Assembly: GCA_964248365.1 (NCBI GenBank)
Contig: CAXTYC010000036.1
Span: 1-52,749, forward strand
DNA from: an uncultured Chroococcidiopsis sp.
Lineage (GTDB): Bacteria > Cyanobacteriota > Cyanobacteriia > Cyanobacteriales > Chroococcidiopsidaceae
Length of the DNA: 52,749 nt
Direction of reading: 5' to 3'
Below, piece after piece: positions 20,382 to 34,796 of this stretch (positions are counted from its first letter, which is position 1; each line of letters opens with the position of its first letter). Both the position numbers and the translations under genes were made by a program. The notes under the pieces were generated by a model, which worked only from the letters and a program-made list of their open reading frames with translations, was not told the DNA's origin and made no database searches.

Positions 20382-20647
20382 GGGCGCTCTTGCCAGAGGA
20401 ACCAGAGGAACTAGAGGCGAGAGGCTAGGGGCTAGCCCAGCGCGTGAAAGCTGGGGGAGCTGGGGAAGGCTTGGGAAGTTACCTTTTACCTTTTCCCTTT
20501 TCCCTTTCACCTTTTCCCTTATCCCTTTCCCCTTTTTCTGCTTCCTCTCGCAAGAGCGCCCCTAATTTGTTGACAATCAATAAACTGTCTACTTGCCAAA
20601 ACACAAAAATTTTTGCTCGGTAAAATACTCTTATACAGATTATTCCT

Positions 20648-21889
20648 ATGGTTTCACTTGCTCGTAAAAACCTGTTAGAAGATATTCCTCGCTTCCTAGT
20701 AGCTCAGGCAGGAATTATGTTTGCTGTTAGTTTGGTAACAATTCAAGCTGGGATATTCAATGGATTTACTCGCTCGACTTCTCAGTTAATTAATAATTCC
20801 CAAGCTGACATTTGGGTAGCATCAAATACTTTGGTACACTCTACACTGACCCTACCCATTCCTGCAACAACCTTAAGTCAAGCTGGGCAAGTTACTGGTG
20901 TCGAAAGAGCAGAAGCATTAATTATTAGAGGAGCTATTTGGCGTTACTCTGCTAGCGAAATTAATCCAGTCAGAGTGATCGGATTTGACCCCAAGGGACA
21001 ATTGTTTGCACCAAAAAATATGATTCAAGGAAGTGTCAGTGCGCTCTCGTCGCCCTATACCGTAATCGTAGATGCAAGTAACCGGAAATCTCTGAATGTC
21101 AATCAAATAGGTAATTTAGCCCAAATTAATTCTTTACCAGCGCGCTTAGTTGGTTTAACCCAAGGAAATCGTTCAATTACTTCAGATCCTTTTGTTTTTA
21201 CCTCCTTAGACAATGCCAATGCTTATGCAAATTCTGGTCAAACTACCAGTTTGTCCTGTAAATTGCAATCCGGTTCAGAGGATATTCAGTGTACCAATAC
21301 TTTTAAGCAACTGGGGCAGGACAAGGCTTCTCCACCCAAAAAGTTAGCCGCCTCAGACACAATTACTTTTGTGTTAATCAAAGCTAAACCAGGTCAAGAT
21401 TTACAGGTATTGAAGCAAAGGCTAGAAGCCGCCATTCCTAATACTCGTGCTTTCACTCGAACCGAGTTGATTGAAAAGACTCAAAGGTTCTGGCAAAGGC
21501 GGACTGGTGTGGGATTTATCCTGGGCTTGGGGGCAGCAGTGGGTGTAATTGTGGGCGGCATTATTGTGGGTCAAATTCTCTATTCTTCCGTCTCTGACCA
21601 TCTCAGGGAGTTTGGAACACTCAAAGCAATGGGTGCGTCTGATTGGACTATATATGGTGTGATTGTAGAGCAAGCGCTTTGGATGGCTGTTTTAGGTTAT
21701 ATTCCTGGTATTATCCTTTGCTTTGGTGTGGCTGCTTGGACTTTTGCCACTCAAGGTATCGTAATTTTAATTACACCCTTGAGTGCGATCGCTGTTTTTG
21801 GCATCACGGTCGCAATATGCATCGGCTCCGCTGTGTTTGCAATTCAAAAAGTAACCCGCGTAGATCCGGCAATTGTATTCAAAGCCTGA
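20648..21889 (+). CDS. ABC exporter permease (MacB/FtsX/DevC-like)
   Basis: One N-terminal TM, large periplasmic loop, three C-terminal TMs, EFGTLKAMGA and DPAIVF. Confidence 0.92.
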   Translation: MVSLARKNLLEDIPRFLVAQAGIMFAVSLVTIQAGIFNGFTRSTSQLINNSQADIWVASNTLVHSTLTLPIPATTLSQAGQVTGVERAEALIIRGAIWRYSASEINPVRVIGFDPKGQLFAPKNMIQGSVSALSSPYTVIVDASNRKSLNVNQIGNLAQINSLPARLVGLTQGNRSITSDPFVFTSLDNANAYANSGQTTSLSCKLQSGSEDIQCTNTFKQLGQDKASPPKKLAASDTITFVLIKAKPGQDLQVLKQRLEAAIPNTRAFTRTELIEKTQRFWQRRTGVGFILGLGAAVGVIVGGIIVGQILYSSVSDHLREFGTLKAMGASDWTIYGVIVEQALWMAVLGYIPGIILCFGVAAWTFATQGIVILITPLSAIAVFGITVAICIGSAVFAIQKVTRVDPAIVFKA

Positions 21890-22076
21890 TGAGTGCAAAT
21901 CAAATAACTTTATCTACCTTTTTATATAGATGAACTTTTGAATGCATCTTCCTAAAGCTCTATCAGTATATTTAGTCAAAGCAGTAAAATATACAAACGA
22001 AATATAAATTAATAATTTGCTTCACCTGTCCAAGCTTGTTTGAAATTCAAACTTTACTCGTTAAAAATCTACAAGA

Positions 22077-22892
22077 ATGACTGTTTCTTTAACCAAATTT
22101 ACTACTTCAATTAAAAACCGCAAAAAGGCTTCTGACACCTCAATCGGTTTAAATTATCCTGAAGCTGCTATTGTCGCCTCTGGAATAGAGATGACGTTCC
22201 AATCAGGAAAACAGTATTTTCAAGTCCTGAAAGAAATTGACTTAGAAATCAAAACGGGTGATATCCAACTGTTAATGGGACCTTCTGGTTCAGGCAAAAC
22301 TACTTTGCTGTCAATTTTAGCTGGATTAATGACACCAACTAAAGGTAATGTATACCTCCTGGGGCAGGAAATTACCAGGATGTCCAGAGAAAAGCTGGCA
22401 ACATTTAGACTCCACAACGTTGGTTTTATTTTTCAGGGCTTTAATTTATTTCCAGCTTTAACAGCAGCTGAAAATGTTGAATTAGTACTGAATTTTAAAG
22501 GTATTCGTGGAGAGACGGCACACAAACAGACAAAAATGTTACTCGAACAAGTTGACTTAGGTAGCCAGGCAAATCAGAAGCCTAGCGACTTGTCTGGAGG
22601 GCAAAAACAGCGCGTGGCGATCGCCCGTGCTTTAGCTGGTAATCCCAAACTGATCATGGCAGATGAGCCGACAGCTGCTCTAGATTCTCACAGTGGGCAT
22701 AATGTAATTCAATTACTACGTGCTTTGGCAAAAGAACAAGGCAGCACTGTCCTGATGGTAACGCACGATCCTCGGATTATTGATAGCGCCGATAGAGTCG
22801 CATATCTAGAAGATGGAATGCTGGGGAAGGGGCTAGGGGCTAGGGGCGCACGTGAGGACAAGGGGACAAGGGGACAAGGGGAGAATTGTTAA
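22077..22892 (+). CDS. ABC exporter ATP-binding protein (LolD/DevA-like)
   Basis: GPSGSGKTT, LSGGQKQRVAIARAL, ADEPTAALD, VTHD. Confidence 0.95.
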   Translation: MTVSLTKFTTSIKNRKKASDTSIGLNYPEAAIVASGIEMTFQSGKQYFQVLKEIDLEIKTGDIQLLMGPSGSGKTTLLSILAGLMTPTKGNVYLLGQEITRMSREKLATFRLHNVGFIFQGFNLFPALTAAENVELVLNFKGIRGETAHKQTKMLLEQVDLGSQANQKPSDLSGGQKQRVAIARALAGNPKLIMADEPTAALDSHSGHNVIQLLRALAKEQGSTVLMVTHDPRIIDSADRVAYLEDGMLGKGLGARGAREDKGTRGQGENC

Positions 22893-22928
22893 TTCCTACT
22901 TTATCCTTCAGCCTTTATCCTTCATCCT

Positions 22929-23888
22929 TTATCCTATTGTTTTAACTATCTCTTGTAGAGTTTGTGAAACTGAACGGGGTCGCCAACCGAGTTCTTTACG
23001 GGCTTTAGCTGCATCCACACGCACACAGCGATCATAGACATAGTGAACTCTTTCCCGACTCAGGGGGGGTTGCCATTTCAATAAGCGTCCGATGGGATCG
23101 AGGATGTTTCCTGCTAGCCTGACAAGGGGTTTAGGGGCTTCGTGGGGAACTGGAATACCTGTTTCGTGGGAGAGAAGTTCAAACATTTCCCTCGTAGTTA
23201 AGTCACCAGCAGAAATGATATAGTGTTCTCCGATTGGAGCTTTTTCTGCTGCTAAAATCATAGCATTGGCTAAGTCGTCTACATGGACAATGCCAGTAAT
23301 GCGATCGCCCCCAGCCCACAACTTCAACCGCCCTTTGAGAAATTGCTGCATGACTGGACGAAAATGAGGATCGTCAGCGCCAAAAATCCCTGAAGGCATA
23401 ATGCTAACAACAGGTACTTGGGTGGCGAATTGATCTACTATTTGTTGCGCCTGGTATTTTGTGCTGTCATAGGCAGAAGAAAAGTTAGTTTGAGTGCGCT
23501 TAAAAGTTTCATCGATAACGTTGCCTCTTGTGTCGCCATAGATGCCCACTGTGCTACAATAAACAACTTTCGACACTCCTAATTCTTGGGCAACTTCCAT
23601 TACAGCGCGGGTTCCCTCTACATTCACCCGTGCCATTTCGGCGGCATTTACTAGCCCAAGCTCTACGTAAGCAGCTGTATGAAAGACTGTATCTACTCCA
23701 GACATTGCTTTTCGCAGTGCATTGCGATCGGTAATGTCTCCATATATTAACTGCGCTTGGGAATCAGCCAGCCTCGCCCTATTGCTAGATTTGCGAACTA
23801 AACCAATAACGCGATCGCCTCGAAGCTCCAAAGCCCTTACCAAATGAGAGCCTGTAAATCCATTCGCTCCAGTAACTAGCGCTTTCAT
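22929..23888 (-). CDS. NAD-dependent epimerase/dehydratase-family reductase (CerR/HpnA-like)
   Basis: GANGFTG, NVEGT, YDSTK (YxxxK); ATGA overlap with the upstream GNAT gene. Confidence 0.9.
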   Translation of the reverse strand: MKALVTGANGFTGSHLVRALELRGDRVIGLVRKSSNRARLADSQAQLIYGDITDRNALRKAMSGVDTVFHTAAYVELGLVNAAEMARVNVEGTRAVMEVAQELGVSKVVYCSTVGIYGDTRGNVIDETFKRTQTNFSSAYDSTKYQAQQIVDQFATQVPVVSIMPSGIFGADDPHFRPVMQQFLKGRLKLWAGGDRITGIVHVDDLANAMILAAEKAPIGEHYIISAGDLTTREMFELLSHETGIPVPHEAPKPLVRLAGNILDPIGRLLKWQPPLSRERVHYVYDRCVRVDAAKARKELGWRPRSVSQTLQEIVKTIG

Positions 23889-25027
23889 AAGGCTTTTTCG
23901 TATATGCGGTAAGTCTTATAAATTTTACCGCCAGCAGCTTCGATTAGTTTACGGGAGGGATAGTTGTCTTCATAAACCCAAGAAAGCTCAGCCCGTTTAT
24001 AGGGTTTACCCTTTTTGATTCCTCCTTGCATTCCCAAATAAATCAAGGCTAGAGGAACCATTTTGCGACGATACTCAGGCAGTGAACAAACGACTATAAC
24101 TCGTCCTTGATCGATTTGACGGCGATACCAGAGAAACTTAAGAATTCCTAACCAGTTCAGCTTTCCCTCAACGTGCTTGAGTGCAATGTTGTAGTCAGGT
24201 AATCCCATGAAACAGCCAATCATTTCGCCGTTGTATTCTGCGACGGGGAATACATCTGGATCTACTAAACTTTGTAGAGATTTGGCTTCTGACAAAAATT
24301 CTGACTCGGTGCGAGGGGTAAAGCTCCAGTTATTAGAAAAGGTAGTGTTAAGCAGACGATAAAGACTAAGAGCATCTTCCTCAAAAGCTTTGCCTTGGGT
24401 TCTAATTGGGCGGAAGCTAACACCAGATTTACAGGCTATTCGATAAGCTTTCTCAAATTCGGTTGGTAGGGGTTTGTCTAATGGAAAATCATAAGCGTAG
24501 GCATCTTTGGCTTTGTACCAGCCATCCTGTTCTACAAACTGTGGGTAGTAGGTTGGGTTATAGGATGTCATTACCATCGGTGGCGAGTCAAAGCCATCGA
24601 CTAAAAATAGACAATTATTGTGAGTAGACAAATCAATTGGACCCCTAACAACTGTCATACCTTGCTCTCGTAGCCACCCACTTGCCGTTTCTAGCAAAGC
24701 TTGAGCAACGTCAAAATCTGAAATGCACTCAAAAAAACCAAACAACCCTACATTCTTACCCTCTCGTTCATTCAAGCGCTGATTGACAGCAGCCACAATT
24801 CTTCCTAAAGGTTGAGGGCTGCTTTCCTCAGATAAAGCGATAAACTGCTGTAGCTTGCCATATTGAAAGAATGGATTACCCGCGTCAAACTGTTTGGCAA
24901 TGCTGCTACGAATAGGTGGAACCCAGCGAGGATCTTTGGCGTATACCCGTGCTGGGACATCCAAAAATAATTCTTTGTCTGCTGGAGTTGTAACAGCCCG
25001 TATTTGAATTGAAGTTTTCGTCAGCAC
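23885..25027 (-). CDS. bacterial ceramide synthase-like (bCerS/YghO-type) double-GNAT N-acyltransferase
   Basis: Family motifs Y..DP.WVPP, NPFF, GRI.A, FGFFEC, RGP, LVDGFD.PP, YNP.YY, LPDYN, ELSWVYEDN and YKTYRIYEK, recognised by eye. Confidence 0.8.
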   Translation of the reverse strand: MLTKTSIQIRAVTTPADKELFLDVPARVYAKDPRWVPPIRSSIAKQFDAGNPFFQYGKLQQFIALSEESSPQPLGRIVAAVNQRLNEREGKNVGLFGFFECISDFDVAQALLETASGWLREQGMTVVRGPIDLSTHNNCLFLVDGFDSPPMVMTSYNPTYYPQFVEQDGWYKAKDAYAYDFPLDKPLPTEFEKAYRIACKSGVSFRPIRTQGKAFEEDALSLYRLLNTTFSNNWSFTPRTESEFLSEAKSLQSLVDPDVFPVAEYNGEMIGCFMGLPDYNIALKHVEGKLNWLGILKFLWYRRQIDQGRVIVVCSLPEYRRKMVPLALIYLGMQGGIKKGKPYKRAELSWVYEDNYPSRKLIEAAGGKIYKTYRIYEKAL

Positions 25028-25173
25028 TTTGATTACACCTAGATTTTAGTAATTAGCTTTTAGCGATTAGCTCTTAGCTTTTAGCAACTGATTGACTAAT
25101 AAGTATTAAAGACACAAGGGAAGCTAGAAATCTCGCTACACGGCTGGGCTAACAGCTAACAGCTAACAGCTAA

Positions 25174-26454
25174 TTAAGCACTAATCATCGGTTTGTACAA
25201 TAAGTCCCTAGTTGCTACCATGCCTGTAACCAAGCGATCCATCTCTTCTTGAGTATGGAGGGCGTTAACGGTGATCCGCATTCGAGGTTTGGCAATATAC
25301 CAAATTGGCGATATCCAAATTCCGTGATTTTGCATGATTTTTCTAGCAAATATCTTGGGATTAATTTCTGACGGTAGTAGTACTGGAACTACGTTAGTTT
25401 CACCAATGGCAACAAAATCATGCTTAGCTAGACGCGATCGCAAGTATTTGGTATTCTCTTGAAGTTTTTGTACTAGTTCGGGACGCTGGCGGACTTGGCG
25501 GATACTTTCTAAAGCAGCAGCTGTGGTTGGCGGTGGCAAAGAAGCTGTGCCAATTGAAGTTGGAGAAACATTCAACAGTGGCTTTAACTCTGCTACGTGA
25601 GTACTAATCGCCGCGCCAACCGAGGCAGCAAACTTAGAGAATGTGGTCATAATTAGGGGAACAACACCCCGCTCAATTGCTTGCTGAGGTAATAGTCCAA
25701 AATGCTCGTAGATGCCTCTACCCGTTGCACCAATTGAACCGCTAGCGTGAGCTTCATCCATCACCAATACGCTGCCTTCGTAATTATGCAGCACGTCGAT
25801 CATGCCTGGCAGAGGTGCAATATCTCCATCCATTGAGAAGACTGCATCGGAAATGACTAAAATTCTGTCATCTGGACGAGCATAACGATACAGCTTGCGT
25901 GCTAAATCTTCGCTGTCGCAGTGGCGGTAAGACTTGACTCGCACACGGGGGCTATGGCTAAATACCTTACCAGAGCGCGTGCCAGCATTAACAATGGCTG
26001 AGACAATACAGCCATGATTCAGGACATCTGTCAAGATCAAAGTCTCGCGGGTGTTCTGAAATCCTGGGACGGGAATAGCCAAGTGACAGAAGGCATCCAT
26101 CAAGGCTTGCAGTGCCATCCAGGCATTTAGAAACAGCTGCGTATGTGGCAGATGCTTAAAAGCTGAAATCTCGTCTTCCAGTTGTCGGTGCAAGTCAATG
26201 CGTCCGCTCAAAACTGAGGTAGCGCTGTTAGACGTACCATACTGCAAAATTGCATCAATTGCTGCTTGCTTAACAGCTGGTTCTTGAACTAGTCCCAATA
26301 CATCATTGGTGCAGAAAGTCAAGACGTTACGCCGTTCGCCCGTAGCTGCTTCTTCAATTTCAACCCTATTACCTTGTTTTTGATGACAAATATACTCGTC
26401 GGGATCTAGCCCACTTTCATACCAACGCTGAACGTATTCTTTGACGGTTTGCAC
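25174..26454 (-). CDS. PLP-dependent alpha-oxoamine synthase (serine palmitoyltransferase/BioF family)
   Basis: ND.LGL, NHGCI, YRHCD, VFSMDGD, DEAH, TFSK (PLP Lys), RMRITV; GTG start with GAGGGGAG RBS. Confidence 0.9.
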   Translation of the reverse strand: MQTVKEYVQRWYESGLDPDEYICHQKQGNRVEIEEAATGERRNVLTFCTNDVLGLVQEPAVKQAAIDAILQYGTSNSATSVLSGRIDLHRQLEDEISAFKHLPHTQLFLNAWMALQALMDAFCHLAIPVPGFQNTRETLILTDVLNHGCIVSAIVNAGTRSGKVFSHSPRVRVKSYRHCDSEDLARKLYRYARPDDRILVISDAVFSMDGDIAPLPGMIDVLHNYEGSVLVMDEAHASGSIGATGRGIYEHFGLLPQQAIERGVVPLIMTTFSKFAASVGAAISTHVAELKPLLNVSPTSIGTASLPPPTTAAALESIRQVRQRPELVQKLQENTKYLRSRLAKHDFVAIGETNVVPVLLPSEINPKIFARKIMQNHGIWISPIWYIAKPRMRITVNALHTQEEMDRLVTGMVATRDLLYKPMISA

Positions 26455-26689
26455 GAATTTACTCCCCTCACCTTATTCTGTCGATAGCTTATTATGTCTG
26501 GCTCAACATTATATTTTCCTTCATTCAATATTTGTTATCCAGGTTTTACAAAATGCCCAATGGCAGCAGTTTTAATTATGTCTTTTAATACAAACAGCCA
26601 GTCGTGGAAGCGTCGATACTGACTATAAATCTGAGTATGGTTTAGCAGTGAGCTAGCAATGGCAGCCGACGCTGCTAGTACAGTTCTCT

Positions 26690-27835
26690 TCATCCGATTG
26701 GCTGTTCTTGGTTTAGCTGAGTTGGTTGTTGGCGATCGCGCTTCGACTTAGAATTAGGTTCCAAGTCCTGCCCCTTAATTGGCGATTGACCCAATTTTTG
26801 CATAAATTGTTCATATTGCTGGACAATTAATCGTTGAATGGCAATAATAGCTGGGTTGATTTCCACATAACGCCGTTGAGGATTGGCTAAATAGTTTCGC
26901 TGTTCGCTCTCGATCATTTCTATGTCTTGAGCAAGAAATTTCAGTAAAAAGCGCTGGAGTACACGTTGCAGCAGTGGCTTAAGCGGCTGAAGTACCCATT
27001 TGGGCAGACGGACTTGGAAAAAGAAGTAGGCAAAAGATCGAGTTTCAGCAACACCTACTGGTAGTCGCATCAAATACAGGCTAGAAATTCCTTGCAGAGA
27101 ACTGTAAAAGTGCGGGTAGCGATAATGAGTTGATACAGGTAAGGTTGTCACCTGGTCAGCTCTTTCGCTTAGTCCTAAAAACTTAGCCATGCGACCTTTA
27201 TAGGAGACTTGATATTCAGCACAAACAGATCCTTCCGTCTGTTTTAAACTAATTAGCACTGGATCGAACCAACCCTGCAAGTTTTGATGCAAGAAACCAT
27301 GAAAAACATCCATCGAGTTGTCATTGCAAATCGAAAAATGTGCTTTGATGCGGGCAGGGATAGGAACCATGAACCAGTCAGGATTATCAAATTCTGGGAT
27401 TTCGGGTACAAAGCTGCTGGCAGCGAGGGCAGGATCGCCTGGGAAAATCCAGATGATATTATATTTTTCTTGGACTGGAAAACTACGGACACAGGCGCGG
27501 GGAAGTTTTTGGGAAGGGGGGAGGTAGGGAATGCTGACGCATTTGCCAGTGCCGTCAAATTCCCAACCATGATAACCACAAGCTAGGTGACAACCTTGGA
27601 CTTTGCCTTTGTGCAGTGCGACTCCTTTATGAGGACAAACATCCTCTAAGGCGTACAACTTACCTGCTGCATCACGATAAACTGCGATCGCTTGCTGCCA
27701 AATCACGACGGGCATAATATCACCTGGCTTAAGTTCGCTTGCCCAAGTGGCAGGATACCAGTAATTTGGGTTAATACCCACCTCACGGACAGCATTCTGA
27801 ACTGTCTGACTTGTCAAGGTCGTAGCCAGTTCCAT
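26690..27835 (-). CDS. Rieske non-heme iron oxygenase alpha subunit
   Basis: CPH...CGYHGW Rieske ligands, DNSMDVFHGFLH and QD mononuclear Fe ligands; ATG 27835 with AGAGG RBS. Confidence 0.93.
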   Translation of the reverse strand: MELATTLTSQTVQNAVREVGINPNYWYPATWASELKPGDIMPVVIWQQAIAVYRDAAGKLYALEDVCPHKGVALHKGKVQGCHLACGYHGWEFDGTGKCVSIPYLPPSQKLPRACVRSFPVQEKYNIIWIFPGDPALAASSFVPEIPEFDNPDWFMVPIPARIKAHFSICNDNSMDVFHGFLHQNLQGWFDPVLISLKQTEGSVCAEYQVSYKGRMAKFLGLSERADQVTTLPVSTHYRYPHFYSSLQGISSLYLMRLPVGVAETRSFAYFFFQVRLPKWVLQPLKPLLQRVLQRFLLKFLAQDIEMIESEQRNYLANPQRRYVEINPAIIAIQRLIVQQYEQFMQKLGQSPIKGQDLEPNSKSKRDRQQPTQLNQEQPIG

Positions 27836-28120
27836 GAATTTTTCCTCTCTTGCAGCGTTTTTGACAATATTTAGCTTACCAGTCTCCCTTAAAACGCTCA
27901 AATTGTCAGCATGAATCGAGACAGCACGCTAACTGTCCACTCTTGCTGGTTGGGAAATACAGATTACTCATCTAGGTAGCTGGGGAGATGGGGAGATGAA
28001 AAGAGGGGGAGAGTGGGGGAGTGGGAGATAAATTTATATCCATATGCTCTAGCCTCTAGCCTCTAGCCTAAGCGCCCCTCTAAGCTGGTTCCTCGCGCTT
28101 CTACTATCATGTAAGTCTAT

Positions 28121-29332
28121 ATGGCTAAATTTTCAACCACAAAAATTTCGGGTTTCTCCCCAAGAGGGCGTGAACTGAGGCTATTAATATTACTAGCGGC
28201 AGGTTCTCTAACTACTATGGCAGGGGGAGTTGTAGCACCAGTTTTGCCAGAAATTGTGCAACAACTCCATCTAGAGCCAAGGCTAGCAGCCAACTTGGTT
28301 AGTATGCATTGCTTGACGATCGCCCTATTTAGTCCTCCTCTGGGCATTTTGGCTGATCGCATTGGCAGGCTGCGGGTGTTAGTAGCCTCACTGGTTCTCT
28401 ATGCAGTGTTTGGCGTAGCAGGAGCGGGGATGACAAGTTTTTTGCCCTTATTAGTATCGCGGGGATTACTAGGGGCAGCAAGTGGGGGAATTGCCGCCGC
28501 TAGCTTGGGTTTGCTAGGTAGTATGTATGAAGGTAAAGCGCGATCGCAGGCTTTGGGTTACGCCACAAGTACCCTGACGATCACTGGCATTGTCTACCCC
28601 GTCTTGGGTGGTTTAGTTGGGGCGACGAATTGGCAGTTTGCATTTTATCTTTACGGTTTAGGGCTGCCACTAGCAGGGCTTGCAGCCTTAATTTTGAGGC
28701 AACCGTCGAGCCAGAGCAAAGCGGGGACTGGCGAACCAAGTTTTATGCTAAGACAAGTTTTAGGGCATCACCAGACTTTATGGCTGCTACTGACCTTGGG
28801 TGTAGCATCAGTTGTAATGTATACCGGAGTCACCTATGCACCACTGTACTATAAACAAGTAATCAAAGCAGGACCACTCGTTAATGGTATTATTCTAGCT
28901 TCGCGCGCGATCGGTGCTGCTGCTGTATCTGCCTTTGGAGCTAGACGCTTATCCCAAAGGTTGGGTTTAGCAAAAGCTACAGCCGTCGGTTTCGGATTGA
29001 TGGGTTTAACAATAGGCATCATTCCGTTATTGCGCCAACTAAATTTGATTATGCTAACAGCAGTGCTATTTGGCGTGGGATTCGGCATTGTTCTACCTAG
29101 TCTCTACGACGCTTTAGCAAACATGGCTCCGGCAAAGTTGCGCTCAAGTGTGCTAGCAGCTGGGACAGGTGCAGGCTTTTTAGGTCAGTTCCTTTCTCCT
29201 ATTCTTCTAGGATCAGTAATAAGTCATAGGGGATTACAAGGAGTATTTTATGCCGCTGCAACTTTATCAGTTGTTGCCGGAGCATTACTGCTGTTATTTG
29301 GTAGCAAGAGATTAGAAAATCGTCAAGGATGA
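28121..29332 (+). CDS. MFS transporter
   Basis: About 12 TM helices, motif A GILADRIGRLR. Confidence 0.93.
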   Translation: MAKFSTTKISGFSPRGRELRLLILLAAGSLTTMAGGVVAPVLPEIVQQLHLEPRLAANLVSMHCLTIALFSPPLGILADRIGRLRVLVASLVLYAVFGVAGAGMTSFLPLLVSRGLLGAASGGIAAASLGLLGSMYEGKARSQALGYATSTLTITGIVYPVLGGLVGATNWQFAFYLYGLGLPLAGLAALILRQPSSQSKAGTGEPSFMLRQVLGHHQTLWLLLTLGVASVVMYTGVTYAPLYYKQVIKAGPLVNGIILASRAIGAAAVSAFGARRLSQRLGLAKATAVGFGLMGLTIGIIPLLRQLNLIMLTAVLFGVGFGIVLPSLYDALANMAPAKLRSSVLAAGTGAGFLGQFLSPILLGSVISHRGLQGVFYAAATLSVVAGALLLLFGSKRLENRQG

Positions 29333-29439
29333 AGGGAAATCAGTTACCAGTTACCAGTTACCAGTTAAGAGGAAAGGATGAAGGATAAAGGTTAAAGGAT
29401 GAAGGCGCTCATATTAAAATTTCAAATTTTACATTTCAC

Positions 29440-29521
29440 ACTTCAAACTTCATCTTTCAAACTTCACCCTTCAAACTTAATCCTTCAAACTTCACCCTTC
29501 ATACTTCAAACTTCATCCTTT
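29440..29521. repeat. heptamer tandem repeat (TTCAAAC/TTCACCC-type STRR)
   Basis: About 11 degenerate TTCANNC units; CAGTTAC repeats nearby at 29341-29367. Confidence 0.85.
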
Positions 29522-29531
29522 CAGGCTTACC

Positions 29532-31217
29532 CTAGTCATCATCTTCGGGCAACCTAAATTCTTGCTCTACCTTAAGTCCAGCTAGAAAATTCCGGTCTTC
29601 GCTAATGTGAGGAAATTTCAACTGAGAATCTGGAATTCCCTTTTCTAACTGGCGTTGACGCAGGATAGCAAAGCTCCCAGAAGACAAAATTCGCAGTCTA
29701 GGGGGTGGAATTGGATCTTTGCGACTAATTTCGTAGTGGGTGTTAGCTTCTTGGAGTCTGCGGTCAAAACTAGCTAGGAAGGCTTGGGGATCGTCAAGCT
29801 TATAACCTGGGGCTAGCTCAATGTTCGCCAGATATCGGGCGGGGAAATCATTCTCTGATAAGGTAATACAAAAATCTTCTAATGGTATGCTAAATTTCCG
29901 TTGCATGGCTTGCATTACCTGAGTAGCATGGGCTTCTGTTGTCTTCTCGGTTGTCGAAGAAATTAGCCCGCCTGTACGGTGACGAAAGACAATTAGGGGA
30001 GCTTGTTGATAAAAACCTAATACCTCGATCACATCGCCAATATCGTAACGATAGAATCCACCGTAACTAGTTATGAGGATGCGATAGCGTTCTCCTACCT
30101 TGACTTCGCTAGCCAGTAAAGTTTTAGGTTGCTCTACGTTCCACTGGTTTTCGGGAATAAATTCAAAAAATCCGCTTTCAATAGCCAGGATGCTACTATC
30201 ATTATCTACATCATGGTAGATGCCAAACATCCCTTCAGCGGATGAAAAAGCTGCGCCAAAAATGGGAGTATCTCCAAAGTAGGCTGGAAATCGCTCAAAG
30301 TAAAAGTCGGAAGTGCCACCCCTGGCATTTGCAATGAAAGAAAGATCAGACCAAGCGAGTTTGGGGGTAAGTCGTCCTTCTGATTTGAGGATTTCCCGCA
30401 GTTGATCCGCTCGAACCGGATTAGCTGACAGTTGCCGCTCTAATTTATACCGAATTTCTGGTTCTAATTCTAACCAATTGGCGATCGCTCCTTTTTCTAT
30501 ATCTCGGATCAGTTCTGAAGCATATTGTTCTAAATAGTTGCAGGTACGAAGGATCAGCATGGGGAAATTGGCAATCATTCCCCGCATCCTCGGTTCTTGC
30601 AATGCGAATAACAAACTAAGGTAGTGGCGAGTTGGACTATCTGCTACCGAGAGAGTTTCGTATGGGTTAGCAAACAATTGCTCGTAGAGTAATTTGTCCA
30701 TTTTTATCGCACCAGCACTAGCAGGTCCGTAAGGAATGTTTCCACTGGTACGCCCCCACAGTTCGGTTGAGTTGGTTACAAGCAGTTTGCCAAATTGTAG
30801 CCCTCTTGAATGCAGCGCCTCAATTAAAAAACCGATGCTAGTTAAGGTAGCCCTTCTAAAGGCATTTTGCGATCGCCTAGTGGTTGGAATCATTTTCTTC
30901 TTCCCTGTCGAGCCACTAGTCAGCGTCAAATAAACCACTGGTTGGGCAGTCAAAATATTTTGTTCGCCTTGGGCGATGCGCTCAAGTAATGGTTCATAGC
31001 TGCTATAAGGCAAAATCGGAATTCGTTCTCGAAATTGCTCAACTGTTTTGATTTCTCTTAACCGATATTTCTGCCCTAGTTCAGTATCTTGATGAGCTTG
31101 TAACAAATTGCATAAAAACTGCTCTTGCACTACCTGAGTCTGGAGAGTTTTTTTCACAAAATTTGATTTGGTAAGTCTAGCAGCACCCGTCAAAATTGGC
31201 AGTACGAAATTTGGCAT
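29532..31217 (-). CDS. GH3-family acyl-adenylating amido synthetase (paralog 1)
   Basis: LTSGSTGKKKMIP, FSSAEG, FFEFIP, FYRYDIGD. Confidence 0.93.
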   Translation of the reverse strand: MPNFVLPILTGAARLTKSNFVKKTLQTQVVQEQFLCNLLQAHQDTELGQKYRLREIKTVEQFRERIPILPYSSYEPLLERIAQGEQNILTAQPVVYLTLTSGSTGKKKMIPTTRRSQNAFRRATLTSIGFLIEALHSRGLQFGKLLVTNSTELWGRTSGNIPYGPASAGAIKMDKLLYEQLFANPYETLSVADSPTRHYLSLLFALQEPRMRGMIANFPMLILRTCNYLEQYASELIRDIEKGAIANWLELEPEIRYKLERQLSANPVRADQLREILKSEGRLTPKLAWSDLSFIANARGGTSDFYFERFPAYFGDTPIFGAAFSSAEGMFGIYHDVDNDSSILAIESGFFEFIPENQWNVEQPKTLLASEVKVGERYRILITSYGGFYRYDIGDVIEVLGFYQQAPLIVFRHRTGGLISSTTEKTTEAHATQVMQAMQRKFSIPLEDFCITLSENDFPARYLANIELAPGYKLDDPQAFLASFDRRLQEANTHYEISRKDPIPPPRLRILSSGSFAILRQRQLEKGIPDSQLKFPHISEDRNFLAGLKVEQEFRLPEDDD

Positions 31218-31492
31218 AAATTCTCTTAATAGTTACCAAGAATGCTTTTTATGAAGCAGCAACTTTTATAGATTACTGTGGGATTGTCAAGAACTAAAAA
31301 AGTAGACTGCTCCAAAACTGTACTCTATGCAACCATAATTTGTGCCATAAAACTTGACTTGTTGTGGGGCGATCGCATGGACGATACGCTTTCATTGCCG
31401 TAAACTGCTTTAGATCTAGGTCAATCTTTCCAAGATCTTGACTTTTGCTGTCTAGAGTGAAACTACAAACCAAAATGAACAGGTTTCACACC

Positions 31493-31903
31493 ATGAAAAC
31501 TTCAAGCAAAATTATTCTGGCAGCAGCTAGTGTTGGTATTTTGAGCTTGGGTGTTGATCTGCAAACTGTATATGCCATAAAGCCCCAATCTCAGGCGAAA
31601 ATAATGCCTCAGTCTCACAGCACTACACAAGTTGCCGAGCCTAGTGATGGTGATGGAGAGGAGAATGACGCTACAGAAGCTCCAGAGCAGGTGAAACAGC
31701 CTGAGCGCACTAATAGCAGTATCCCAATAAAAATACAAGAGGCAAATAATAGCACCCGAAGGCAGAATGATACCAAAAATGCTCTTGAACGGGTAAAACA
31801 CAATCAATCCCAAGCAGCGACTAATTTTAACAGCAAAAACCAAGATGATGGTGGTTATGATGCCCCTAATGATGCTGACAGTACCCATGAAGATGCACAT
31901 TAG
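31493..31903 (+). CDS. secreted low-complexity acidic protein
   Basis: Signal-peptide-like MKTSSKIILAAASVGILSLG; DGDGEEND and QDDGGYDAPND acidic motifs. Confidence 0.7.
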   Translation: MKTSSKIILAAASVGILSLGVDLQTVYAIKPQSQAKIMPQSHSTTQVAEPSDGDGEENDATEAPEQVKQPERTNSSIPIKIQEANNSTRRQNDTKNALERVKHNQSQAATNFNSKNQDDGGYDAPNDADSTHEDAH

Positions 31904-32104
31904 AGCAAAAACTATAACTTTAGCTATTGTGTCGCCTTGATTGCTTAGCTAATTGAATACCTGGTTTTGGGATTATTCTATATTCCCCGTTGAGTAATCC
32001 CAATCAAAAATCTCTGTTGAGAACTATCTATAAAAAAATCAGAGCTAGCTTTTCCACATCTACCTTTAGCAATACTTTATTAATTTTGATTTGTGAAATT
32101 TACA

Positions 32105-32319
32105 GTAGGGTGGACATTGCCCACTCTTTCTGAGAATGGTGGGCATGGGTGGCAAACTATAGCACTCTCTTTTGAATTGTGAAAACAATTATCAATTATC
32201 AATGAATAATCAACAATTGATAATTGATATAGTCATTTGTTAAGAACAAAAGACACTCGTACTATTGACGCGCTTACAACCAGCATGAAATATTTCACAA
32301 ATCCTAAGCTTTGCTATAG
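32105..32319. mobile_element. REP-like palindrome followed by a MITE-like element
   Basis: GTAGGGTGGACATTGCCCAC at 32105; bipartite inverted ends CTATAGCA-N12-TTGTGAAA (32157-32184) and TTTCACAA-N11-TGCTATAG (32293-32319) enclosing CAATTAT/AATTGAT heptamers. Confidence 0.65.
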
Positions 32320-32346
32320 CAAATTATTAATATAAAGATGACGTTA

Positions 32347-34035
32347 TTAATTATCATCCTCCGGTAGGCTAAATGTTTGCTCTACTACTAGTCCAGCTAA
32401 AAAATTTCGGTCTTCGCTAATATGAGGAAACTTCAACTGCGAATCTGGAATTCCCTTATGTAGTTGGCGCTGGCGGAGTTTAGCAAAACTCCCAGGTTCT
32501 AAAATTCGCAGTCGGGGAGGCGGAACCTCATCTCGGCGTTTAACTTCATAATTCGCGTGCATTTCTTTCAGTTTACGATCAAAGCTAGCTAGAAAGTCTT
32601 GAGGATGGCTGAGTGTTTGACCTGACGTAAGTTCAATATTAACAAGATAGTGAGCCGGAATAACATCTTCAGATAAAGTAATACAAAAATCTTCTAGAGA
32701 TAGGCTAAATTCTTGTTGGAGAGCTTGCATTACCTGAGTCACATGAAATTCATTGGTTTTCTCAGTAGTAGAAGAAAATAGTCCGCCGCGACGGTGACGA
32801 AATACGAGCAGGGGAGTTTGTTCATAGAATCCCACTACTTCCACAACATCGCCAATATCGTAACGGTAGAAACCGCTATAATTTGTCATCAATATTCGAT
32901 AGTATTCTCCTGATTTGACTTCCTGAGCTAATAAAGTTTTAGGATGTTCTACTTCCCACTGCTCTTGTGGGATAAATTCAAAAAAGCCGCTTTCAATTGC
33001 TAGAATGCTGCCATCGTTGTTCAAAGCGTGGTTAATTCCAAAAGTACCCTCTGCCGATGAGTAAACTGCACCAAAACCTGGGGTGTCTTCAAAGTAGCTG
33101 GGAAATCTTTCAAAGTAAAAATCTGACGTGCCACCACGAGCAGTTACAACAAATGATAAATTTTTCCAAACCTTTTTTGGTGTAAGTTTTCCTTCTGATT
33201 TACAGATTTCTTTTAATTGCTTAGCTCGGAAGGGATTAGCTGTCAAACGCTGCTCTAAAAGAATTTTCAGTTTTGGTTCCAATTTTAACTCTTTTGCTAT
33301 AGTTCCTGTTTCTAAATCATAAAGCAACTCTTCGGCATACTGCTCTAAGTAACTACAGGTTCGCAAAACAAGCATAGGAAAATTGGCTCCCATTCCTCTG
33401 GTTTCCGGCGCTTGCAAGGCAAATAGTAGACAAAGATAATGGCGAGTAAAACTATCAGTTGGTAGTAAGGTTTCGTAAGGATGGGCAAATAGTTGCTCGT
33501 AAAGAAATTTACCCATTCGCAACACTCCCACGCTGGCTGGACCATACTCAATACCGCCACTGGTGCGCCCCAAAACTTCTACTGAGTTCGTCGCTAAAAG
33601 TTTACCAAATTGTAGTTCTCTTGCTTGTAATGACTCGGTTAAAAATCCTATGCTGGTTAAATTAGCTTGTCGCAATGAGTTGTAAAATCGCCGCGTGACC
33701 GGAATTATTTTTTTCTTGCCAGTTGAGCCACTAGTGTGGTTGAAATAAACTACCCGCTCGGCTGTGAGAATATTTTTTTCACCTTTGGCAATGCGTTCTA
33801 TATAAGGTTCATAGTTACTGTAAGGTAAAACAGGAATCTGCTCTCGAAATTTATCAATAGTTTTGATATCCTTAAGTTTATATTTGTTACCTAGTTCTGT
33901 ATTTTTATGAGCTTGTAACAACTTGACTAAAAACTGCTCCTGCACTGTCGGGCAATAGCGAGTTTTTTGGACGAAATTCACTCTAGCTCGTTGAGCAATA
34001 GTCGATAAAATTGGTAGCAATAAATTTGCTATCAT
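32347..34035 (-). CDS. GH3-family acyl-adenylating amido synthetase (paralog 2)
   Basis: HTSGSTGKKKIIP, YSSAEG, FFEFIP, FYRYDIGD; collinear with paralog 1. Confidence 0.93.
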   Translation of the reverse strand: MIANLLLPILSTIAQRARVNFVQKTRYCPTVQEQFLVKLLQAHKNTELGNKYKLKDIKTIDKFREQIPVLPYSNYEPYIERIAKGEKNILTAERVVYFNHTSGSTGKKKIIPVTRRFYNSLRQANLTSIGFLTESLQARELQFGKLLATNSVEVLGRTSGGIEYGPASVGVLRMGKFLYEQLFAHPYETLLPTDSFTRHYLCLLFALQAPETRGMGANFPMLVLRTCSYLEQYAEELLYDLETGTIAKELKLEPKLKILLEQRLTANPFRAKQLKEICKSEGKLTPKKVWKNLSFVVTARGGTSDFYFERFPSYFEDTPGFGAVYSSAEGTFGINHALNNDGSILAIESGFFEFIPQEQWEVEHPKTLLAQEVKSGEYYRILMTNYSGFYRYDIGDVVEVVGFYEQTPLLVFRHRRGGLFSSTTEKTNEFHVTQVMQALQQEFSLSLEDFCITLSEDVIPAHYLVNIELTSGQTLSHPQDFLASFDRKLKEMHANYEVKRRDEVPPPRLRILEPGSFAKLRQRQLHKGIPDSQLKFPHISEDRNFLAGLVVEQTFSLPEDDN

Positions 34036-34304
34036 TTCCTCGCACCTATAGGAAGACTAGTGTATTTACGTAATAGCTCTAATGAATGTAGGTGAAATGT
34101 GGATGTTCCTTGTGAAAAATGAGGTAACAAGAATTTTTATTTCAGTTTTGGCATATTTTACTATAGCGATCGCAAGAGTGAGCAGGAATAGAAAACAAAA
34201 TATTCGCCACACTAAAAATATGTTGTAAGATTACCATCTAATCAAATAGGATATAAAAATATAAATTGTGGGTTGCCAGATAGAAAAGGTGTGATTGAGG
34301 AGGA

Positions 34305-34796
34305 GTGATGCCCGCTTTAGGTGTAGGCTGTTTTATTCTGGCGTTTGTCTTTGCTAGTTTAGTCGAATATTGGCTACATCGCCTAATGCACGTCTCGCCA
34401 CGAATTGGCGAACGACACCGCGATCATCATCGCCGCAACGAAGGACAAGGCGTGATTTGGGAGTTTCGGGATTATGTTCAGGGTAGCTCTATAGCGATGT
34501 TTGCTATGTTCTTTTACTCGCTAGAAGCTGGTATCGGCTGGTTTTTGGGAGCGTTATGCTTTGCTGCTTTTTCTGCCTATGCTCATCAATTGCAGCATGA
34601 GAATCCGACAAAGTGCTTTTGGATGAAGATGCCAGTCCACTACGTACATCATAAATACGGTATGTGGCATCACAACTTTGGTTTAGCCGTAGACTGGTGG
34701 GATCGGGTTTTTGGTACTTACAAGCCTGTGGAATGGCTCACGCAAGAGGAACTTAATCAGCCTGAACGGAGTTATTTGCAGTTGCGTTGGTGGTGA
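34305..34796 (+). CDS. fatty acid hydroxylase / sterol desaturase family protein
   Basis: Four His boxes HRLMH, HRDHH, HQLQH, HYVHH plus NFG...WWDRVFGT; GAGGAG RBS. Confidence 0.92.
   Translation: MMPALGVGCFILAFVFASLVEYWLHRLMHVSPRIGERHRDHHRRNEGQGVIWEFRDYVQGSSIAMFAMFFYSLEAGIGWFLGALCFAAFSAYAHQLQHENPTKCFWMKMPVHYVHHKYGMWHHNFGLAVDWWDRVFGTYKPVEWLTQEELNQPERSYLQLRWW

Follow-up and report, generated by a model that had tools for sequence, protein, structure and literature searches.

We describe a gene block in a stretch of 52,749 nucleotides from an uncultured Chroococcidiopsis sp. (GenBank assembly GCA_964248365.1, contig CAXTYC010000036.1; this whole stretch is called the window below), which belongs to a genome of 5.58 Mb with 43% G+C. 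The block, at positions 20648 to 34796, is built around an alpha-oxoamine synthase (AOS), a YghO/bCerS-like GNAT and an extended SDR, and we consider it to form the bulk of a single co-inherited pathway that makes and exports a ceramide-type lipid, an N-acylated long-chain amino alcohol, with a starter enzyme other than Spt, a reading to which we give a probability of about 60%. Judged from sequence, the system would work like the bacterial ceramide pathway, with the GNAT falling inside the published limits for its family and the AOS and the SDR outside theirs.

On the minus strand, genes for a Rieske non-haem iron oxygenase (26690..27901), the AOS (25174..26454), the GNAT (23885..25027) and the SDR (22929..23888) follow each other: 235 bases separate the first two and 146 the next, and the last pair overlaps by 4 bases, which read TCAT on the plus strand at 23885-23888, i.e. 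ATGA on the minus strand. This consecutive arrangement had been reported in a preliminary description made from the DNA alone, together with flanking genes for an MFS transporter, two GH3 proteins, a four-His-box hydroxylase and a MacB/DevC-type ABC pair; coordinates and sequence bear out the former, Pfam and motif matches the latter. All open reading frames (ORFs) of that description were recovered at their coordinates in the window, and a Pfam/NCBIfam scan of the window proteins backed each gene label, that of the GNAT excepted.

Distribution and co-inheritance

Orthologues were counted in 200 genomes sampled across the phylum (85 from the class of the window and 115 from other classes) and in the 40 nearest relatives, eight of which are shared with the phylum sample. 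Gene surroundings were read from the best 80 of 270 confirmed AOS loci. An AOS orthologue was found in 16 of the 85 class genomes and in none of the 115 others. The 16 genomes span ten families, four outside the window's own order; three well-sampled families of that order lack the gene (0/26, 0/11 and 0/10), and in the window's own family it occurs in 24 out of 24 genomes. Many of the AOS-positive genomes come from soil-crust, rock and mat lineages.

The partner genes follow the same distribution. The SDR is present in the same 16 genomes and in none of the other 184, and in seven of the 16 it shares no locus with the AOS, being far away or on a different contig, and in one more it is about 9 kb off. 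GNAT orthologues at 61-80% identity occur in these 16 genomes and in none of the 69 AOS-negative class genomes, more remote matches (28-34%) being found in 11 genomes of other classes. The ABC permease is present in all 16 and in two of the 69, and the hydroxylase orthologue (71-87%) in 15 of the 16, with only a 51-57% paralogue in five of the 69. GH3 genes were found in 14 of the 16 and in none of the 69 (matches at 26-33% occur in 20 other-class genomes), and the Rieske orthologue in 11 of the 16 and in none of the 69, eight of which have a 36-39% paralogue. The MFS gene was present in all 14 AOS-positive genomes tested and in none of five AOS-negative ones. Two further genes, treated below, belong to the same set: an amidohydrolase, in 12 of the 16 and in 0/184 others, and an Mpo1-like gene that tracks it (5/5 positives, 0/4 AOS-positive genomes without the amidohydrolase, 0/6 AOS-negative genomes). 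Of the 40 nearest relatives 32 have the AOS, and of these 31 also have the GNAT and 30 GH3, while neither partner was found in the eight AOS-negative relatives; the only genome lacking the GNAT is 73% complete and has its AOS at a contig end.

All nine gene types surround the AOS in seven of the 80 loci, one of which has only a 55-aa Rieske fragment. In the 41 loci with at least 8 kb of upstream and at least 5 kb of downstream sequence, the neighbors were the Rieske gene (38), MFS (26), GNAT (21), GH3 (20), SDR (19), hydroxylase (11) and permease (10). Since close AOS-negative relatives lack the partners and distant AOS-positive genomes have them, a score threshold does not explain the pattern, and the recurring nine-gene surroundings together with the genome-wide co-occurrence argue that the arrangement is not due to chance. 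The gene set is co-inherited in a minority of cyanobacteria and most likely serves to make, modify and export a sphingolipid-like membrane lipid, and the co-occurrence that the preliminary description had asked for is confirmed genome-wide. Of the four outcomes named there in advance as speaking against the idea, three were approached (co-occurrence, GNAT grouping and bioF) and none of the results overturned it.

Core enzymes

The GNAT has no Pfam or NCBIfam match, a PDB sequence search gave a best hit of only E 0.56, and atlas look-ups returned only generic names for it and for the amidohydrolase. It nevertheless aligns end to end with YghO of E. coli B (29% identity over 381 columns, E 2e-54), and its best plasmid match is a Rubrobacter operon gene (36%). 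The structure model (pLDDT 84.6) has tandem GNATs as its top Foldseek matches, a fold that we take to be a feature of the bCerS/YghO family; bCerS was reportedly defined by Stankeviciute et al. 2022. Compared with references that left out the Caulobacter protein itself, the GNAT lies within the bCerS limits of PMC11334938 (E <= 1e-30, coverage >= 50%, database size 1e8), with E 6e-49 to E. coli YghO and 5e-68 to the Rubrobacter protein at the same database size. The earlier label of a bCerS-type GNAT is thereby upheld; the protein is by sequence a full-length YghO/bCerS homologue and a putative N-acyltransferase. In one genome a second GNAT copy (78%; L132, G003:C13:73129-74265), followed by a 36-residue SDR fragment, lies apart from the main cluster.

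In the AOS, both the fold and the pyridoxal phosphate and catalytic residues (Asn, His, Asp, His, Thr-Phe-Ser-Lys, Arg) are intact, and N50, H147, D233, H236, T271-F-S-K274, R391 and R393 are invariant in 238 distinct orthologues. Its model (pLDDT 94.5) is equally near serine palmitoyltransferase (SPT), ThAOS, KBL and ALAS; the best PDB sequence match is the SPT of S. multivorum (SmSPT, E 7e-41) and the best plasmid match (34%) is the gene next to that of the GNAT match in the same Rubrobacter operon. The protein scores under every AOS cut-off of NCBIfam, including that of bioF (TIGR00858, 238 of 426 bits), whereas a second AOS of the genome, on contig C47 and 30-33% identical to the one in the window, reaches 459 bits and so lies above the latter. 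This genomic test, which is not a complementation, agrees with the earlier statement that the gene is not bioF. In a 19-row IQ-TREE the AOS appears as sister of Spt with weak support (65/73), and the data do not reject its grouping with BioF instead (p-AU 0.14). Going by sequence, we regard the AOS as an enzyme with an intact active site that is neither BioF nor a typical Spt, forming a clade of its own outside Spt and at best its sister.

A search of 1.84 billion representatives gave a small number of full-length proteins, 37-62% identical, that rise above the generic AOS background, one of them named as from a Pseudomonadota metagenome-assembled genome (MAG), and 1114 clusters reached E <= 1e-100 to the AOS among 8000 candidates scored. 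The identifiable AOS-bearing records are cyanobacteria, save a few labeled 'uncultured bacterium' and one that is probably misbinned. The latter, a MAG contig titled Tatlockia sp. (L078), has the cluster order and flanks of Aliterella-type cyanobacterial loci. The same may hold for another record (P0177; 88% identity), which bears an apparently non-photosynthetic candidate name.

The SDR has intact GxxGxxG and YxxxK motifs (PF01370, epimerase/3-beta-HSD type). Its identity to four operon SDRs is 24-32%, from 24% with E. coli B epi to 32% with the Streptomyces operon SDR. By sequence it is a generic extended SDR that is not callable as CerR, and a role as 3-keto reductase is suggested by its position, overlapping the GNAT gene, and by its co-inheritance.

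Departures from the known sphingolipid enzymes

Several observations weigh against the ceramide-type reading. The first concern the AOS, which had been presented as Spt-like. The NCBIfam Spt models give 179 of 640, 168 of 500 and 117 of 670 bits, all below cut-off, and the best E-value against four Spt references is 2e-49, short of the E <= 1e-70 applied with 273 references in PMC11334938. Furthermore, Spt queries match the BioF of the genome before the AOS; a BLAST survey for Spt would therefore skip the AOS, which fails the usual cut-off as well, and this may explain a possible oversight in surveys. In trees, the orphan AOS clade (support 100) falls outside the Spt clade, which is supported by 99 in a 97-row FastTree and by 98/96 in the IQ-TREE. 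The position of SmSPT Ser81 is Cys in 143, Thr in 77 and Ala in 18 of the 238 orthologues, and Ser in none; this serine contacts the substrate through water in SmSPT (PMC10196870), and the equivalent Val79 steers amino-acid choice in ThAOS (PMC11906848). Six further pocket positions differ from SmSPT (Tyr54 to Val, Arg82 to Ser, Phe83 to Val, Phe113 to Trp, Met271 to Ile and Phe272 to Gly), and in the alignment the PATP-type loop is four residues shorter. With the pocket thus remodelled and Ser81 never retained, serine cannot be assumed as the substrate, and the smaller residues at Phe83, Met271 and Phe272 may widen the acyl site.

The SDR, presented earlier as CerR-like, misses the CerR cut-off (E <= 1e-30) with best E-values of 1e-21 (Streptomyces) and 5e-12 (E. 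coli B) among four references, and resembles HpnA/SdmB, with HpnA as its best family, more than CerR. Membership in CerR is therefore not supported for the SDR, nor is membership in Spt for the AOS. As for the GNAT, the cyanobacterial proteins form their own clade (100/100) outside a proteobacterial and actinobacterial clade (98/95), which they join at 83/84 only, in the 19-row tree. YghO-type GNATs are also seen where no AOS is nearby, and E. coli YghO itself is a predicted ceramide synthase only, described as a homologue of Caulobacter CC_1154 and a possible N-acyltransferase (PMC9386255). Separate clades and family members without a nearby AOS mean that homology is no proof of ceramide synthase activity. 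Two more general points are that Roseomonas queries found no CpgABC-type head-group genes and no LptF2, and that the genomes counted above are kin and not independent, for which reason no P value is claimed.

An example of a GNAT apart from any AOS is found in an other-class genome (L129:5575-17937, G112:C14), where a YghO-type GNAT (30%) has no AOS match in 20 kb. Its neighbors, judged from their translations, resemble an AMP ligase, an MMPL-type exporter, a PEP-utilising enzyme and UbiA-like and HMG-CoA-reductase-like proteins, and this looks like a different lipid pathway employing the same acyltransferase family.

Transport and accessory genes

At the low-numbered end of the block, on the plus strand, an FtsX/MacB-type (DevC-like) ABC permease (20648..21889; PF02687, PF12704) is followed by a DevA/LolD-like ATPase (22077..22892; PF00005), and the ATPase gene comes after the permease in most of the permease loci examined. 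We consider the permease a candidate exporter and an obligate partner of the core. The pair differs from the DevBCA glycolipid exporter, as the devC and devA (TIGR02982) models give 155 of 290 and 253 of 296 bits, both below cut-off, and as no membrane-fusion gene stands beside the pair in the window, where ruvC and not devB is found upstream. Two genomes (G188 and G210, loci L137 and L138) keep the cluster-type permease and have no match to AOS, GNAT, SDR, MFS or Mpo1, possibly as a result of recent loss of the pathway. The MFS transporter (28121..29332, plus strand; PF07690) is divergent from the Rieske gene.

The Rieske protein (PF00355 + PF19112), which may start instead at the ATG at 27835 to give 381 aa, has SdmA as its best NCBIfam model, at 238 of 600 bits and below cut-off. 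Its gene occurs in 69 of the 80 AOS loci. A 37% paralogue is encoded elsewhere in the source genome (G000:C4:8026-9066, minus strand); genomes lacking the cluster have paralogues of this type too. In Phormidesmis-type loci (L046, L047, L052, L056 and L059), one or two genes for proteins of 180 and 295 aa with no Pfam hit lie between the Rieske and AOS genes; the source genome has both of them together on contig C10.

Two minus-strand genes encode GH3 acyl-acid amido synthetases, copy A (29532..31217) and its tandem duplicate copy B (32347..34035; 69% identical), with all three domains (PF03321/23571/23572). Their three nucleotide motifs are intact, judged by patterns that we take to be those of the family. 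They match plant GH3 at E 8e-42, and the model of OlsH (NF052613) gives 80 and 87 of 620 bits, below cut-off. Seven of 30 GH3-bearing relatives have two copies and 23 have one. In the neighbor clustering, several GH3 labels were apparent single-linkage artefacts and were left out. Both the second GH3 copy and the Rieske gene are dispensable in many genomes. The last gene of the block (34305..34796, plus strand) encodes a small protein of the fatty-acid-hydroxylase/sterol-desaturase family (PF04116) with four His boxes.

Additional neighbors recur in the 80 loci, namely an Asp/Asn-beta-hydroxylase (15), a JmjC cupin (12), the amidohydrolase (11), the Mpo1-like gene (10) and a B12 radical-SAM gene (6). 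The last was rejected as a marker of the pathway, since it matches 80 of the 200 genomes (80 of the 85 in the class). The Asp/Asn-beta-hydroxylase is OlsC-like (294 of 450 bits). The amidohydrolase has DitZ as its best PDB match and resembles small-molecule decarboxylases and hydrolases. In relatives the cluster hydroxylase, the Mpo1-like gene and the amidohydrolase usually form one run. In the source genome, contig C4 (80152-83775; L114:6150-9776, minus strand) carries the Mpo1-like gene, the amidohydrolase gene and the B12 radical-SAM gene as a single run, and because the first two directly follow the cluster hydroxylase in relatives, this run is a detached part of the system. The amidohydrolase is absent from all 15 loci with the OlsC-like gene, which suggests, as a count at the locus level, two accessory variants. 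A DUF2141 match in the source genome (G000:C28:70398-70655) has a counterpart in a Roseomonas sphingolipid locus (L160).

In yeast, the breakdown of phytosphingosine includes the shortening of 2-hydroxy fatty acids by Mpo1 (PMC10398889). OlsC, OlsD and LpxO 2-hydroxylate lipid acyl chains, with OlsE being a di-iron hydroxylase (PMC12971839), and the bacterial GH3 protein OlsH uses a free fatty acid and ATP to make N-acyl-ornithine (PMC12493201). The accessory families, i.e. Mpo1-like, OlsC-like and GH3 with its OlsH precedent, thus point to acyl-chain chemistry.

Proposed pathway and alternatives

From gene identities, intact active sites, phylogenetic positions and co-inheritance, all directly observed, we infer the reactions, substrates, their order and the product as follows. 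An acyl thioester and a small amino acid, perhaps Ser, Ala or Gly, would be joined by the AOS with loss of CO2. Housekeeping acyl-ACP (acyl carrier protein) would probably be the acyl donor, as the cluster has no carrier or ligase like the dedicated AcpR and AasR of the rhodobacterial ceramide locus: there was no match on the window's contig, only distant ones elsewhere in the genome, and none among the recurring neighbors. Aas-based acyl-ACP recycling in cyanobacteria has been noted (PMC9386255). The GNAT would then N-acylate the aminoketone and the SDR reduce the ketone, in an order taken from Caulobacter, where it was debated (PMC11324152), and the ABC pair and the MFS transporter would export the product from the inner membrane. 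As optional steps, tailoring or recycling may be performed by the hydroxylase, the Rieske oxygenase and the GH3 enzymes, the last as ATP-dependent amide formation from a free acid, with both GH3 copies and the Rieske enzyme presumably acting on the same product. A further arm would consist of the Mpo1-like protein and the amidohydrolase (on contig C4 here), or of OlsC/LpxO-like and JmjC hydroxylases in other lineages. The distribution agrees with such a downstream arm: the accessory genes never occurred without the core, whereas one genome (G038) has the core and no match to GH3, hydroxylase, amidohydrolase or Mpo1.

A more specific version of the ceramide-type reading, which we put forward tentatively and hold to be possible at most, is that the AOS is an independently derived long-chain-base synthase using a non-serine amino acid, giving, together with the bCerS-like enzyme, the GH3 ligases and the hydroxylases, a new class of hydroxylated sphingolipids (1-deoxy or amino-acid-conjugated) exported by the FtsX/MacB-type pair. 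If so, about one in five of the sampled class genomes would belong to sphingolipid makers that are invisible to surveys with Spt thresholds.

The G038 genome could also be taken to separate two pathways at the locus, one in which AOS, GNAT, SDR and ABC pair make a ceramide-type lipid and another in which GH3, hydroxylase, Mpo1-like protein and amidohydrolase make or turn over an OlsH-like N-acyl amino-acid lipid and do not act on the ceramide. Two more genomes (G025 and G035) have the accessory genes as a separate block far from the AOS, and OlsH needs no partner to make its product from free fatty acid and ATP. This view, compatible with the core of the ceramide-type reading, is nonetheless somewhat unlikely: none of the 69 class genomes and, for GH3, none of the eight relatives has accessory orthologues without the AOS, and such one-sided dependence would be expected of a downstream module.

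We consider it unlikely, too, that the same chemistry yields a signal or another specialised metabolite, namely a diffusible N-acyl aminoketone or N-acyl amino alcohol of small size made from a short or medium acyl donor, exported by the MFS transporter and conjugated or inactivated by GH3 in the way that plant GH3 enzymes treat hormones. The structural nearness of the AOS to ThAOS, KBL and ALAS as much as to SPT would suit such a product, as would GH3 proteins closer to plant hormone-conjugating GH3 than to OlsH, an amidohydrolase of small-molecule type and the lack of head-group genes in the search with Roseomonas queries. The characterised member of the YghO/bCerS family, however, acts on a long-chain lipid (PMC11324152), the accessory hydroxylases belong to families that modify acyl chains, and a conservation of 71-94%, with the AOS in every genome of the window's own family, looks like an envelope function.

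Tailoring of hopanoids or other triterpenoids, with the Rieske oxygenase, the SDR and the desaturase-like protein acting on the ring or side chain and the AOS and GNAT adding an N-acyl amino side chain, seems very unlikely. It would account for SdmA and HpnA/SdmB as best families of the Rieske protein and the SDR and for the amidohydrolase matching DitZ, and the genome does have a squalene-hopene cyclase; but the SdmA, SdmB (145 of 600 bits for the SDR, below cut-off) and HpnA scores are far below cut-off, the SDRs of Spt operons likewise have HpnA as best family, the Rieske gene is absent from five of the 16 genomes that keep the core, and shc sits on another contig. To see in the AOS a housekeeping BioF or Kbl with unrelated neighbors is hardly credible: its top NCBIfam score (bioF), a JGI label as glycine C-acetyltransferase and the unrejected clade with BioF point that way, but a true BioF exists on C47, most sampled cyanobacteria lack the AOS, and it is strictly co-inherited with GNAT, SDR and permease.

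Comparison with known systems

The ceramide pathways of Caulobacter, Spt-bCerS(CerS)-CerR (CC_1162/CC_1154/CC_1164), and E. coli B (ECD_02854/02850/02852) likewise combine an AOS, a tandem GNAT and an extended SDR, with hydroxylases and an ABC exporter nearby. They differ in that the window AOS branches outside the Spt clade, that the cyanobacterial cluster has no AcpR/AasR and no Cpg head-group genes were found with Roseomonas queries, that GH3, Rieske, MFS, Mpo1-like and amidohydrolase genes are added in the cyanobacterial system, and that the exporter is of FtsX/MacB type instead of the LptFG paralogues (LptF2G2) of Caulobacter (10.64898/2026.04.12.717747). Proteobacterial sphingolipid loci have comparable accessories, e.g. 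a desaturase and LptFG beside bCerS and an Asp-hydroxylase with 43% identity to its cyanobacterial counterpart.

The same order of AOS, GNAT and SDR genes is found in uncharacterised plasmid operons of Rubrobacter radiotolerans and Streptomyces sp. NBC_01001, the latter with overlapping gene ends, which agrees with the Spt-bCerS-reductase-like gene order claimed for the window. Their AOS, in contrast to that of the window, lies inside the Spt clade and has G-S-R, and the operons have none of the cyanobacterial accessory genes. The OlsH route with OlsC/OlsD/OlsE shares the GH3 amide chemistry (PMC12493201) and the OlsC-like and di-iron hydroxylase families, but no OlsI-type acyltransferase is among the recurring neighbors here, and GH3 is linked to the AOS. 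The Pseudomonas SgaAB pathway, which makes sphinganine fed by a polyketide synthase (PKS), is another case of an AOS outside the usual operon: SgaB, from a PKS cluster and not an spt-bcerS operon, has SPT activity, and SgaAB makes long-chain bases (PMC12134224). The window has no PKS and does have bCerS-like and SDR genes. Cyanobacterial BioF (Npun_R3567 type) shares the AOS fold and is a separate gene, on C47, in the source genome.

Sphingolipids in cyanobacteria

Lipidomics of Nostoc punctiforme had been offered in the preliminary description as fitting a non-canonical product. PMC8895605 reports that no sphingolipids were found in this strain and that the gene tested, Npun_R3567 (394 aa), grouped with cyanobacterial BioF, and it reports no other AOS in the genome. 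With a BioF-clade AOS only, the negative lipidomics fits absence of the present pathway, not a non-canonical product, and that support falls away. According to the same paper (2022), sphingolipid enzymes of cyanobacteria were all uncharacterised at that time, and the model strain was concluded to make no sphingolipids; ceramides are cited from two cyanobacteria, Scytonema julianum and Moorea producens. Two Scytonema-named loci (L043 and L063) carry the AOS; Moorea producens is not among the named AOS rows, which are a minority of all rows, and its cerebroside came from field-collected material (PMC6272925). The cluster was not described in the available portions of the literature searched (cyanobacterial serine palmitoyltransferase/ceramide, bCerS/CerR, lipidomics and GH3, few subscription papers being covered).

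The system thus names likely enzymes of cyanobacterial sphingolipid synthesis, and carriers of the orphan AOS, rather than strains with BioF only, are the candidates for finding them. Should the ceramide-type reading be true, it would add an AOS clade with a new specificity, a sphingolipid export route independent of Lpt, a role for cyanobacterial GH3 proteins and possibly a lipid that could serve as a biomarker of many cyanobacteria from terrestrial settings and mats.

Other features of the block

Between the GH3 genes, a plus-strand ORF (31445..31903) encodes a low-complexity acidic protein of 152 aa with a hydrophobic N-terminus and no Pfam hit. It has a partial paralogue on contig C55, and was rejected as a member of the pathway, as it has no match in any of the 80 AOS loci; it probably lies outside it. 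A promoter and terminator scan gave no excess over shuffles (38 vs 27.5 +/- 6.6 and 12 vs 15.4 +/- 4.6, respectively). Heptamer tandem repeats, which are common in cyanobacteria, occupy most of the intergenic gaps of the cluster (20482-20536, 22899-22935, 25040-25173, 28047-28069 and 29341-29515). Finally, AT-rich near-palindromic ATTATC/GATAAT repeats, which presumably resemble a Fur-type box, are found at 32190-32225, downstream of GH3 copy B and upstream of the end of the 152-aa ORF.

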